A stretch of DNA of 64,000 bases, from contig JANNNG010000226.1 in NCBI GenBank assembly GCA_031398425.1, forward strand, positions 9,270 to 73,269. The letters run 5' to 3'. The first letter of the stretch is position 1. Each line of letters opens with the position of its first letter. Shown piece by piece: positions 13,718 through 19,428 of the stretch. The position numbers and the translations under genes are program-made. Source of the stretch: Hyphomicrobiales bacterium (GTDB lineage: Bacteria; Pseudomonadota; Alphaproteobacteria; Rhizobiales; Aestuariivirgaceae). Below the pieces are notes generated by a model. It did no database searches. It was not told the DNA's origin and saw only the letters and a program-made list of their open reading frames with translations.

Positions 13718-13785
13718 GTCAGAGCACCACACCATTGCGACCAGCATATTCCATCAAATCCCCGCGCAGGGAATGCGCAGGCGAG
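13718..13785 (-). pseudogene. Displaced copy of the ptsP 3' end (SPAHSLRGDLMEYAGRNGVVL-stop)
   Basis: 64/68 nt identical to 17163-17230, same orientation, stop codon retained. Confidence 0.9.
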
Positions 13786-14063
13786 GTGAAATTGACAAGC
13801 TGCACAGCCCTGGCATCGCCGGAGGCTTGTTGGTCCAAGTTAGGCCGCCATGGAATCGAGCACCATGGCAAAGCGGATTGCCGCATCGGTCAGCGCCCCC
13901 ACCTTGTGGATGTAAGAGAACATCGCCCCCGACATGCCAGCAAGCTGAAAAACCGCCGCCGCGCGCGTTCGTCGGATAAATTGCATTGTGCAATGCGGCA
14001 TGCTAGGAGCGCGGCAATCTCAAGCCTCTACAGCAAGCCCTCACAGAAAGTCACAGCACTCCT

Positions 14064-15890
14064 ATGGATCTGCGCAATATCGCCATTATCGCCCACGTTG
14101 ACCACGGCAAGACAACGCTGATCGACCGTCTGCTCAGCCAGTCCGGCACCTTTCGCGACAACCAGAAGGTGGGCGAACGCGTCATGGATTCGAATGATCT
14201 TGAGCGTGAACGCGGCATCACCATCCTCGCCAAGGTCACTTCGCTGCAATGGCACGACACCCGCATCAACATCGTTGACACGCCGGGCCACGCCGATTTT
14301 GGCGGTGAGGTTGAACGCATTCTCAACATGGTCGATGGTTGCGTGCTGCTGGTGGACGCCGCCGAAGGCCCGATGCCACAGACCAAGTTCGTGCTGCAAA
14401 AGGCCTTGAAACTCGGCCTCAAGCCTATCGTCTGTATTAACAAGATCGACCGTCCGGATGAACGTCACATCGAAGTGGTGAACGAAGTTTTCGATCTGTT
14501 CGCAGCACTTGATGCATCAGAAGAACAACTCGACTTTCCGATCATCTATGGGTCGGCAAAACACGGCTGGATGGCTGACAAGCCGGAAGGCCCGCAGGTC
14601 AACATGGACCCGCTGTTTGCCCTGGTGGTCAAGCATTTCGCACCCCCTGTGATTGAACCCGGCGAATTTCGCATGCTGGCCACCACACTCGAAGCCAACG
14701 CTTTCCTCGGCCGCATTCTGACAGGCCGCATCCGCTCAGGCTCGGTAAAGCCAAACCAACAGGTCAAGATTCTGGCCCGTGACGGTTCGGTTGTTGAAAC
14801 CGGCCGCGTGTCAAAAGTGCTGTCCTTCCGTGGCATTGAACGCGTCCCCGTCGAAGAAGCCCATGCGGGTGACATCGTGGCCATCGCAGGTCTCGTGAAA
14901 GCGACCGTGTCCGACACCTTCGTTGATCCTGCAATCACCGAACCCATCGCCGCCACTCCAATCGATCCTCCAACACTCGCGATGGCCTTCCGCATCAATG
15001 ACGGACCACTGGCTGGCAAGGAAGGCGACAAGGTGCAATCCCGCGTCATCCGTGAACGCTTGTTGCGCGAGTCAGAAGGCAACATTGCGCTGCGCGTCAC
15101 CGCATCCGAAACCGAAACCGATGCTTTTGAAGTGGCGGGCCGTGGTGAATTGCAGTTGGGCATCCTGATTGAAACCATGCGGCGCGAAGGCTTTGAACTC
15201 ACGGTGGGGCGACCGCGCGTGGTCTATCAAATCGACGAAACCACCGGCGAAAAAATGGAACCCGTCGAAGAAGTCATCATCGACGTGGATGAAGCTTACG
15301 CAGGCGTCGTCGTCCAGAAAGTCTCGGAGCGCAAGGGCGAACTCCGCGATATGCGGCCCTCCGGCACCGGTCGTCAGCGTCTCGTCTTCCATGCGCCAAC
15401 GCGCGGCCTCATCGGTTACCAGTCTGAACTGTTGTCAGACACGCGCGGCACCGCCATCATGAACCGCCTGTTCCATTCCTATGCCCCTTTCATGGGCAAC
15501 ATTGCCAGTCGCCACACCGGTGCCCTCATCTCCAATGGTGAAGGCGAAGCCGTGGTTTACGCCATGTTCAACCTACAGGATCGTGGGCCCATGTTCATTG
15601 AGCCCGGCGCCAAGGTCTATGCTGGCATGATCATCGGCGAACACACGCGCGGCAATGACCTTGAGCTTAATGTGCTGAAGGAGAAAAAACTCTCCAACGT
15701 ACGTTCAAAGGGCGCAGAAGAAGCACAGATTTTGACGCCGCCGATCAAGATGTCGCTGGAAAAAGCGCTCGCCTATATCGGCGAAGATGAGTTGGTGGAA
15801 ATCACGCCAAAGTCTATCCGGCTGCGCAAGACCATTCTTGATCCCACGGAAAGAAAGCGCCTGTCGCGGCAGAAAGAGGCTGCGGCCTAA
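14064..15890 (+). CDS. typA: Translational GTPase TypA/BipA
   Basis: [47 protein letters not shown]. Confidence 0.98.
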
Positions 15891-16926: not shown

Positions 16927-17002
16927 GGGGCGGTAGCTCAGTTGGTAGAGCGCGTCGTTCGCAATGACGAGGTCAGGGGTTCGATTCCCCTTCGCTCCAC
17001 CA
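16927..17002 (+). tRNA. tRNA-Ala(CGC)
   Basis: GGGGCGGTAGCTCAG...CGTCGTT-CGC-AATGACG...GGTTCGATTCCCCTTCGCTCCACCA, with the G3:U70 alanine identity pair. Confidence 0.97.
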
Positions 17003-17163
17003 TCCAGTGCGGTGACTGGCAGGCCAGACACTGATCCCGAATTGATCCAAATGAACCAAACATTCATTGCAGGCGAGCCAAGACGTCGACTGCCTCCCAG
17101 AAATAACGGCACCTGGGAAGCGGTCTTGTGATCAAACAGAAGTCTTCTGCAAACCAATCGCAG

Positions 17164-19428
17164 TCAGAGCACAACACCATTGCGACCGGCAAATTCCATC
17201 AAATCCCCCCGCAGGGAATGCGCAGGCGAGCGCATCAGCGGCTCCATGAAGGCCCAGAGCTTGCCTTGGTCCAGGGTGCGGATCATCGCCTTTACGGGAC
17301 CAATACCTGAGGGCACCATGCTCATGGAGGTCATGCCAATCCCAACAAGCCCCATGGCTTCCAGAGGCCTGCCACCCAGTTCACCGCACAACGTCACCTT
17401 CCTGCTATGTTGCTTGCCCTTCTCGACAATGATGCGCATGGCACTCAGCGCCGATGGACTCAAAGGATCATAGCGCCCCGACAGTTTCGGATTGCCGCGA
17501 TCGCTCGCAAACAGGAACTGCACCAGATCGTTCGACCCGATCGAAGCAAAATCCACCATCGGCAACAATTGGTCCAACTGCCAGATCAGCGATGGTATTT
17601 CGATCATCACACCGATCTGTAGCGATTTCGGCAGAGCATGTCCTCGCGCCGCGAGGTAAGCCTTTTCCTTGTCAACAGCAGCCTTCGCCAGAACATACTC
17701 TGAGACATCGGCAATCATCGGGAACATGACCTTCATGTTATGCCCCGCACCCGCCATCAACATGGCGCGCAACTGCAACCGCAACAATGCCGGCCGTTCC
17801 ATCGACATTCGGATGGAGCGCCAGCCCATGGCCGGGTTTTCTTCCTTGGGCTGCCTGAGATAGGGCAGGATTTTATCGGCCCCGATATCCAGTGTGCGGA
17901 ACACGACGGGCTTGCCCTCAGCCTGCTCTATCACCTGTTTATAGTGATTGATCTGCGCCGTCAGGCGGGGAAACCGCTGTGCCAGCATGAACTGCAATTC
18001 GGTTCGGTAAAGCCCTACACCATCGGCCCCCGACTCCGCCAGATGCGGCATGTCGACAATCAGACCCGCATTGATGTTGAGACTGACCGTGACACCATCC
18101 TTGGTGACCGACGGCAGATCCTTGAGGGCGGCAAACTGCGCCTGCCGCTTGGCATAGAAGCGCACTTTCTCGGCATAGGCCTTTTGCAAATCCTGTGACG
18201 GCCTGACGAAGATTTCTCCGGTGCTGCCATCGACAATGATTTCATCGCCGGGGTCCACGAGATCAACAATGCCATTGGCCTGGCCGATGGCGGGAATACC
18301 AAGAGCCCGCGCCACGATTGCCACATGGCTGGTCTTGCCCGCCTCTTCGAGAATGACGCCGCGCAATTTCGAGCGATCATAGTCCAGCAATTCCGCAGGC
18401 CCCATATTGCGGGCCACCACAATCGAGTTGTCGGGAAGATCGGTCCGCGACGCCGTGGCCACCGCACCTGTCAGGATGCGCAGCAATCGGTTCGACAGGT
18501 CGTCGAGGTCATGCATGCGCTCGCGCATGTAGGCGTCCTGCATGCGCTGCATGCGGGCGCGATTGTCATTCTGAACCCGCTCGACAGCCGCTTCTGCCGT
18601 GAGGCCCGAATGCACGGCTTCTTTCAACCGGTTCACCCAGCCCTTGTCATGGGCAAACATGCGGATGGTTTCCAACACGTCGGAATAGTCCGTGGCGCGA
18701 TTGTTTTCCGAGCCGTCCAGCAATTCATCGACTTGCGCCCTGAGCTGTTCCACGGCCGCCATGAGGCGCTGTTCTTCCAGCGGAACATTCTCGGCGATGA
18801 GATTGTGAATCTCGACGCGTGGCTCATGCAGCACGACAAAGCCCAGGGCGATGCCATCAGCCAGATTGTCAGCCTCGATGTGGTGGCTGCGAATATGGGC
18901 AACATCAATCGCCACCTCCCGCGCCACTTCCTTGAGCTCGCCCGATGCAATGATTTCGGCCAGCACCATGGCCGTGGTTTGCAGCGCCTCCTCTTCTTCC
19001 TCGGAATAATGCCGTTGCGTGCGGTTCTGCACCACGAGCACACCAATGACCGAGCCGCCACGCATGATGGGAACACCGAGGAATGACTGATAAATCTCTT
19101 CGCCCGTCTCAGGCAGATACTTGAACGATGGATGATGTTGCGCGTCAGAAATATTGAGCCCGATCGCCTGTTCGGCAATCAAGCCCACCAGACCTTCACC
19201 GGATTTCAGCACCGATTTGTGAACCGCCTCGGCCTTCAACCCTTCCGTTGCATAAAGCTCTAGAATATTTCCGGCCCGCATCACATAGATCGAACAGACC
19301 TCCGCCACCATGTTGGCAGCAATCAGACGAACGATCTTGTCGAGTTTGGCCTGGGCCGTCTCCGGCTCCGCCATCACCGCCCGCAGGCGTCGGAGAAGGA
19401 CACGCGGGCCAAGTGCGGAGCTGGGCAT
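17164..19428 (-). CDS. ptsP: Phosphoenolpyruvate-protein phosphotransferase EI-Ntr (GAF + EI)
   Basis: N-terminal GAF domain, TSHVAIVARALGIP phospho-His motif, GVGLYRTE, FRTLDIGADK, GWRSIR, SIGSNDL. Confidence 0.97.
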   Translation of the reverse strand: MPSSALGPRVLLRRLRAVMAEPETAQAKLDKIVRLIAANMVAEVCSIYVMRAGNILELYATEGLKAEAVHKSVLKSGEGLVGLIAEQAIGLNISDAQHHPSFKYLPETGEEIYQSFLGVPIMRGGSVIGVLVVQNRTQRHYSEEEEEALQTTAMVLAEIIASGELKEVAREVAIDVAHIRSHHIEADNLADGIALGFVVLHEPRVEIHNLIAENVPLEEQRLMAAVEQLRAQVDELLDGSENNRATDYSDVLETIRMFAHDKGWVNRLKEAVHSGLTAEAAVERVQNDNRARMQRMQDAYMRERMHDLDDLSNRLLRILTGAVATASRTDLPDNSIVVARNMGPAELLDYDRSKLRGVILEEAGKTSHVAIVARALGIPAIGQANGIVDLVDPGDEIIVDGSTGEIFVRPSQDLQKAYAEKVRFYAKRQAQFAALKDLPSVTKDGVTVSLNINAGLIVDMPHLAESGADGVGLYRTELQFMLAQRFPRLTAQINHYKQVIEQAEGKPVVFRTLDIGADKILPYLRQPKEENPAMGWRSIRMSMERPALLRLQLRAMLMAGAGHNMKVMFPMIADVSEYVLAKAAVDKEKAYLAARGHALPKSLQIGVMIEIPSLIWQLDQLLPMVDFASIGSNDLVQFLFASDRGNPKLSGRYDPLSPSALSAMRIIVEKGKQHSRKVTLCGELGGRPLEAMGLVGIGMTSMSMVPSGIGPVKAMIRTLDQGKLWAFMEPLMRSPAHSLRGDLMEFAGRNGVVL

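Follow-up and report, generated by a model that had tools for sequence, protein, structure and literature searches.

A displaced ptsP tail beside a tRNA-Gln promoter suggests an attachment-type duplication around relocated core genes in a Hyphomicrobiales bacterium

The 3′ end of ptsP, the gene of enzyme I-Ntr, is present twice in the window, by which we mean the whole 64,000-nt stretch of Hyphomicrobiales DNA analysed here (C177:9270–73269 of the 3.5-Mb genome G000, a metagenome bin of 326 contigs with 3.45% contamination; G, C and L numbers are our handles for genomes, contigs and loci). One copy is the working end of an intact gene. The other is an orphan on the far side of a typA–yggT–tRNA-Ala block, where it lies against the promoter region of a tRNA-Gln gene. 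We read the two copies, with moderate confidence, as the remains of a duplication of the ptsP tail of the attL/attR type (left and right attachment sites), which would have been caused by DNA bringing its own ptsP tail. This reading turns on three features:

17164–19428, minus strand: intact ptsP (enzyme I-Ntr, 754 aa), from the open reading frame (ORF) and the Pfam matches GAF, PEP-utilisers_N, PEP-utilizers and PEP-utilizers_C
17163–17230, minus strand: working 3′ end of ptsP, one copy of the repeat, from alignment and ORF
13718–13785, minus strand: orphan ptsP 3′ end, now non-coding, from its 64/68 match to 17163–17230

Re-alignment of the two segments confirms that they are direct repeats without gaps, identical at 64 of 68 positions, as the initial annotation had reported. 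Each 68-mer holds the last 21 PtsP codons, the stop codon and 1 nt. Only these two copies exist in the whole 3.5-Mb genome (the second is found with E 5.9e-24). The four mismatches are CGG/CGC, TTT/TAT, GCC/GCT and GTT/GTG (working/orphan copy); three are synonymous and the remaining one, Phe/Tyr, is conservative, again in agreement with the initial annotation. The longest exact run common to both copies is 21 nt. No similarity is found outside either edge of the 68-mers, and local alignments of the flanks are no better than those of shuffled sequences. Comparison with outgroups shows that TAT and GCT of the orphan are derived and occur in no relative, while CGG and GTT are given, less surely, to the working copy, which makes two changes per copy.

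The own copies match at 64/68 positions, versus 50–57/68 (about 80%) to the other species compared, and the states common to both copies occur in none of those species. Because the copies resemble each other far more than they resemble any known species, any donor lineage of a ptsP tail should be a very close relative. The earlier proposal that one tail comes from the ptsP allele of another lineage is narrowed by this result: no known species is close, and only a very close relative could have supplied it. Over its 754 aa, PtsP is 94–97% identical to its nearest homologues.

This genome is not alone in the genus in having an orphan tail. When the last 53 PtsP residues are searched as protein against 156 genus genomes, further orphans appear 0.8–2.2 kb beyond ptsP in G239, G181, G248 and G241:

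G239: 103 nt, 95% identical, direct; insert of 1.9 kb with two ankyrin-repeat proteins
G181: 135 nt, 90% identical, direct; insert of 2.2 kb with a tetratricopeptide-repeat protein and a protein of unknown type
G248: 112 nt, 86% identical, direct; insert of 0.8 kb
G241: 91 nt, 86% identical, inverted, plus a 54-nt piece, 87% identical, direct; the copy lies at a contig end

In G239, G181 and G248, as in this genome, ptsP stays intact and direct repeats of its 3′ end flank the insert. The left start of the repeat lies 102 nt before the ptsP end in G239 and G181 and 108 nt before it in G248, in all three at the K-L-W codons, and the right ends differ (stop+1, stop+33 and stop+4, respectively). 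In the window the −102 to −108 part of the orphan is missing, and the remnant of an insertion sequence (IS) end lies 15 nt from the truncated edge. Every orphan is closest to the tail of its own genome. In G248 it is the orphan, not the working tail, that keeps the downstream flank found in the sister species G181. The cargo is accessory in G239 and G181, whereas here it consists of native core genes with accessory remnants only. The attachment-type duplication with a replacement 3′ end, which the initial annotation had put forward from the window, gains strong comparative support from these orphans, which have a left boundary in common, carry unlike cargo and differ from the working tails mainly at synonymous sites. 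G206 was considered as a further case and set aside as ambiguous; it shows a contig break near −102 only, and a second copy is absent.

The differences between working tail and orphan are strongly biased towards synonymous ones. Summed over the five genomes there are 40 synonymous and 9 non-synonymous differences (18% non-synonymous), distributed as follows (synonymous/non-synonymous): G241 13/0, G239 5/0, G181 9/2, this genome 3/1 and G248 10/6. Random changes in these codons are expected to be non-synonymous in 72–78% of cases; simple decay of the orphans would give 58–74%, with ~58% for a neutrally decaying orphan beside a selected gene. The probability of the observed 18% is about 1.5e-8. 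Given this 40:9 excess over the expectation for decay, most of the divergence evidently arose when both tails still served as ends of functional genes. The initial annotation had suggested from the window that both copies were once under coding selection; this stands for the five genomes together, and does not for this genome taken alone, where outgroups give two changes to either copy.

Site-specific recombination is suggested by the apparently fixed entry point together with the allele-like divergence. In the first step that we propose, an ancestral ptsP would have stopped 2 nt short of the tRNA-Gln promoter. DNA with its own ptsP tail would then have recombined into ptsP at a fixed position ~100 nt before the stop. 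The incoming tail would have become the working end of ptsP, and the original one would have been displaced beyond the insert, still abutting the tRNA-Gln promoter. An entry point fixed in this way would call for a site-specific recombinase, either one that acts in trans or one that has disappeared since; no such gene was found.

A known example of such tail exchange is e14 at icd in Escherichia coli. As described in PMC13626634 (citing Hill et al. 1989), the insert in the icd 3′ end supplies a new tail and the original is left as the icdC pseudogene. Most differences between the icd and icdC tails are synonymous or conservative (PMC13626634). The ptsP case resembles e14/phage 21 at icd in the use of a housekeeping-gene 3′ end, in the replacement tail, in the original tail on the far side in direct orientation and in the mainly synonymous or conservative differences between the tails. 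It differs in several respects: e14 carries its own integrase and excises, whereas no recombinase gene is found here; an IS would have removed the presumed crossover region from the orphan; and the bracketed DNA is made of native core genes instead of a prophage. A second parallel is provided by the cis-mobilizable elements (CIMEs) and islets at the fda 3′ end of Streptococcus thermophilus, which belong with the ICESt1/ICESt3 family of integrative and conjugative elements (ICEs). These are small inserts without recombination genes, flanked by direct repeats of about 27 bp from a core-gene 3′ end at a repeatedly used site, and their cognate integrase and full ICEs are known. The ptsP inserts are likewise small, with direct repeats from a core-gene 3′ end and a reused site; their repeats measure 68–135 nt, however, and a cognate element is not found.

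On the far side of the orphan the context is that of a tRNA gene:

13599–13673, minus strand: tRNA-Gln (UUG), sole UUG copy in the genome, from ARAGORN and Rfam (tRNA, 61 bits)
13674–13717, minus strand: tRNA-Gln promoter region with a putative −35-like TTGCGA and −10-like TATAGA, hexamers read from the sequence

The stop codon of the orphan lies 2 nt from the −35-like TTGCGA, so that its position directly before the tRNA-Gln promoter region, noted initially, is correct. The region upstream of tRNA-Gln is kept in same-genus genomes and in L049 up to about 13715, and the neighbours of tRNA-Gln(UUG) are different in every species examined. Exact-pattern scans of metagenome and genome collections find no orphan/tRNA-Gln junction and no ptsP end followed directly by the tRNA-Gln promoter. 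Rfam, promoter and terminator scans find nothing besides the two tRNAs. As a separate observation, C277:1100–1920 of this genome, where G175 has tRNA-Gln(UUG), carries 820 bp of inserted DNA in which a small ORF lies upstream of a PIN-domain toxin-like one.

The initial annotation had asked whether ptsP is directly followed by tRNA-Gln in the closest genomes. This is not what is found: either ptsP faces clpB, or a cbb (RuBisCO) operon lies between ptsP and tRNA-Gln. In most of the genus the order is lysC–ptsP–(variable, 0–3 kb)–rodZ-like–prfA–prmC–DUF4167–clpB. In the nearest species, G175 and G238 (85% nucleotide identity in ptsP), the rodZ–clpB segment is inverted and ptsP faces clpB. This inversion is common to this genome (window 1–2480 and upstream C177), G175 and G238 (L073, L074) and is not seen in the rest of the sampled genus. 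In another near group, L049 and G197, the cbb operon comes after ptsP and tRNA-Gln comes next, with the sugar ATP-binding cassette (ABC) cluster that is also found here lying beyond, and the large-scale order of L049 (sugar ABC genes, tRNA-Gln, ptsP) matches that of the window. Because L049 and G197 have it too, the linkage among these three evidently predates this genome. The orphan, lying against the tRNA-Gln promoter, is the copy that keeps the older context, more so than the intact tail.

Some further details of these neighbourhoods were recorded. A complete cbb operon separates the stop codon of ptsP from the promoter of tRNA-Gln in two related species (L049:4043–11830 and L052/L075:6698–13530) and comprises cbbR, FBPase, PRK, the large and small subunits of RuBisCO, CbbX and a HAD phosphatase; this genome has no RuBisCO. 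A small 'dnstrm_HI1420' antitoxin-like gene lies just 3′ of ptsP in three species (L049 4453–4746, L053 14420–14611 and L073 7676–8041), whose ptsP neighbours otherwise differ. Elsewhere in the window, at 29155–29200, the tail of a minus-strand gene is present as a tandem 23-bp duplicate (CTCAACCCTCTTTGAGCTTGGCC / CTCAACCTTCCTTGAGCTTGGCC) without an insert.

Inside the bracket, the 188 bp from the orphan to the typA block form a mosaic of pieces, and a spacer closes the bracket on the ptsP side:

13786–13800, minus strand: 15-nt filler from the IS end to the orphan, resembling neither ptsP nor the IS
13801–13853, minus strand: right-end remnant of an IS3-family element with the last transposase codons, stop and terminal inverted repeat, from IS-end matches
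13858–13943, minus strand: part of an accessory gene that encodes a large secreted repeat protein, 83% identical over 86–88 nt to two copies in G202:C2, E 1.4e-17
17003–17162, no strand assigned: 160-bp spacer from the tRNA-Ala 3′ end to the ptsP stop, no matches

The segment 13801–13853 matches IS ends in G003, G159, G191, G206 and G145 and on the own contigs C270 and C162 (E down to 7.5e-10). Fuller copies of this IS are found on C270 and C162 and in relatives, none of them whole on one contig. They have a terminal inverted repeat TG...CA and encode OrfA (HTH_Tnp_1) and OrfB (HTH_21, rve), and the window keeps the last ~55 nt only. A 55-aa ORF that spans the orphan is chimeric, made up of the IS end, the filler and the ptsP tail, and a Pfam search with it gives no family match. 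The 160-bp spacer has no match in 200 family genomes, in the own genome or among IS ends; possibly it represents the inner border of the DNA that was once inserted. The IS3 end and the accessory-gene fragment inside the bracket fit the scar of a nearly deleted island, which was one of the possibilities raised initially.

In the second step of our scenario, whose anatomy is visible and whose order is proposed, the insert would have been gutted. The IS3-family element, or a deletion starting from it, would have cut the orphan from ~102 to 68 nt and removed the presumed crossover core. The survivors would be the last ~55 nt of the IS, the 86-nt accessory-gene piece and the 160-bp spacer.

Two transposon-based explanations of the bracket were rejected. 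A composite transposon is not consistent with an IS remnant at one end only and a 160-bp spacer without IS similarity at the other. A target-site duplication of transposition does not fit a repeat of 68 nt, and the synonymous excess counts against copies that were identical at birth and decayed later; target duplications of the IS3 family comprise a few bases. Concerning the filler, it is similar at 13/16 positions to sequence that flanks an IS of this type in G206 (L070 near 3050–3066), where the IS interrupts a serine-recombinase gene (FNSLDAQREACEAYI...). This likeness is too short to interpret and may reflect chance, target preference or a shared relic. Concerning the secreted repeat gene, a ~650-bp 5′ region of it occurs twice in L069 (G202:C2), at 6300–6960 and 10950–11600; the duplicates are 4.65 kb apart and 93% identical, and their frames appear disrupted.

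The main part of the bracketed DNA is a block of core genes:

13974–17004, no strand assigned: relocated core block of typA/bipA, lipoprotein gene, yggT and tRNA-Ala, from the homology limits in L059, L060 and L062
14064–15890, plus strand: typA/bipA, from ORF and Pfam
15887–16477, minus strand: lipoprotein gene, 196 aa, from ORF and Pfam
16532–16822, minus strand: yggT, from ORF and Pfam
16927–17002, plus strand: tRNA-Ala (CGC), from the tRNA search

Homology to L059, L060 and L062 begins at 13974 and ends at 17004, with identical limits in all three. The ancestral site of the block in these loci has an LpqE/OsmC/149-aa cluster on one side and a histidine-kinase gene on the other. The possibility raised in the initial annotation, that typA lies elsewhere in relatives, holds for every relative examined, and so it does for yggT and tRNA-Ala. 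The own contig C97 carries the LpqE/OsmC/149-aa cluster and is continuous through the ancestral site, with the block missing. Homology of C97 ceases at the stop codon of the 149-aa gene; in the relative, the 3′ end of tRNA-Ala starts at precisely this point, and one breakpoint of the block is the exact tRNA-Ala 3′ end. The histidine-kinase gene is found on the own contig C159, followed by tRNA-Arg and then by an IS3-family left end that closes the contig. GC content and GC skew are uniform over the region and thus point neither to a foreign source nor to an inversion in the recent past. TypA (97%) and PtsP (95–96%) are about equally close to the same relatives, so that the block bears no foreign mark. 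Judged by this similarity, the block is native DNA, and it has moved from its ancestral site. No independent assembly with the lipoprotein of the block is on record.

An integrase-mediated relocation of the core genes, as initially considered, is not supported, given that no tyrosine integrase is found in or by any insert and that the block is native by similarity. The core-gene cargo is better explained by a later rearrangement associated with IS and tRNA genes than by integrase-mediated transport. In the third step, of which the relocation itself is observed, the tRNA-Ala–yggT–lipoprotein–typA block would have left its site between the osmC-type cluster and the histidine-kinase gene and entered the bracket. 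Nested inversions or IS-mediated recombination would be the likely route, because one breakpoint lies at the tRNA-Ala 3′ end and IS ends are found near the old and the new sites. At present the orphan would be a non-functional relic, and the only way to lose the structure would be for the two 68-mers to recombine by homology.

The IS end on C159 (L089, 610–744) is the left end of a second IS3-family element, whose OrfA starts with MTRRKRRNHS.... This second type (L086 5040–5180) also starts 18 nt past the ptsP stop in G206. Islands that integrate at a tRNA typically leave a partial 3′ copy of it near the full gene. No partial copy of tRNA-Ala is found elsewhere in the window. In G013:C29 (L036), near 9211–9268, a partial second tRNA-Ala(CGC) comprising the 3′ half lies ~600 bp from the full gene.

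Several points weigh against an attachment-type origin of the repeats. No tyrosine integrase (PF00589) is encoded on C177 or near the inserts of G239, G181, G248, G241, G206, G226 and G212, around which serine recombinases were not systematically searched, and the recombinase genes nearest to the inserts are Xer-like and 15–20 kb off. No complete element with a ptsP tail is found, viral contigs and phage records contain none with such a tail, and the literature searched does not name ptsP as an attachment site. The inserts have no common sequence, even beside the orphans, which leaves a single element family unsupported. G181 and G248 are sister species, for which one old event plus gene conversion is possible. 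In this genome alone the ratio of 3:1 is not significant: four differences, two per copy, carry no statistical weight. Finally, the source is a metagenome bin in 326 contigs.

The best surviving alternative, though an unlikely one in our judgement, is an ordinary rearrangement scar. A stretch of ptsP would have been duplicated during IS-mediated translocation of the typA block, and the copy, cut by an IS, would be decaying. The IS3 end 15 nt from the orphan edge suits this explanation, as do the IS ends and tRNA genes at the other breakpoints, and the region downstream of ptsP varies in almost every species. Two changes per copy, as polarized by outgroups, are also what is expected of a decaying orphan beside a selected gene. 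The bracket resembles the fragments left at IS-rearrangement breakpoints, with a truncated gene piece by an IS terminus and several unrelated fragments in ~260 bp at a synteny break. Such fragments, however, are not expected at one codon position across species, nor with mainly synonymous differences. A scar leaves unexplained both the orphans elsewhere with a common left boundary and different cargo and the 40:9 excess, and IS3-family target duplications of a few bases do not account for repeats of 68–135 nt.

A bolder version of the site-specific scenario is more doubtful still. The K-L-W codons, ~102 nt before the ptsP stop, could be the crossover site of an undescribed trans-acting recombination system whose recombinase gene lies outside the inserts; within this genus the same system would load small unrelated cassettes downstream of ptsP, each with a replacement ptsP tail, and could have captured and moved core genes such as typA and the tRNA gene. 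We hold both parts of this proposal, taken jointly, to be improbable.

Somewhat less probable again is a RecA-dependent import for which a very close sister lineage was the donor, through a Campbell-type circle or homology-facilitated illegitimate recombination. The ptsP tail and the typA block would have arrived together and the native block would then have been lost (xenologous replacement), a combination that we consider improbable as a whole. It would agree with the single typA block in the genome and the empty ancestral site in C97, with the mostly synonymous differences expected of two working alleles, and with copies that are 94% alike versus about 80% to any known species. On the other hand, TypA and PtsP, at 97% and 95–96% to the same relatives, carry no foreign mark, the donor must already have had ptsP beside the typA block, and homologous integration gives no cause for the common left boundary in other species.

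An assembly chimera of two co-occurring strains in the metagenome bin is very unlikely. The 326 contigs, the 3.45% contamination and the IS remnant at the junction would be in its favour. The junctions 13785/13786 and 17162/17163, however, share no sequence at which an assembler could switch, and the longest exact match between the 68-mers is the 21-nt run given above. Uniform GC content and GC skew, the continuity of C97 over the empty site and like structures in far better assemblies (G181 in 20 contigs, G248 in 9) also speak against it.

The least probable alternative, and a very improbable one in our opinion, is that the orphan is kept for a function, either in a small ORF with the PtsP tail at its end or in the regulation of tRNA-Gln: the strikingly preserved protein sequence of the G239 and G241 orphans (0/18 differences non-synonymous) and the 55-aa ORF could be taken in its favour, but that ORF is chimeric and without family match, upstream sequences and lengths vary, two orphans have internal stops by the search, and the conservation as an RNA or promoter element considered in the initial annotation is not seen, the orphan being absent beside tRNA-Gln in the 24 same-genus genomes first searched and giving no Rfam hit.

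The attachment-type duplication belongs to a known kind, a gene-tail duplication at an insertion hotspot. What is unusual is the secondary cargo of core genes and that no recombinase is found. The copies also carry a warning for annotation, that short copies of gene tails by tRNA promoters are relics, not genes. If the reading is true, ptsP, encoding enzyme I of the nitrogen phosphotransferase system (PTS), would be one of the few protein genes that foreign DNA enters repeatedly at the 3′ end, here in a poorly studied and probably freshwater group of Hyphomicrobiales/Rhizobiales. This assignment follows the names that homologues bear in other databases, namely Aestuariivirga sp., Rhizobiales and Phyllobacteriaceae. 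The conserved boundary ~102 nt before the ptsP stop offers a concrete, testable site. Such a site could later trap housekeeping genes, and in this genome a tRNA gene and typA would now lie between two recombinogenic repeats.

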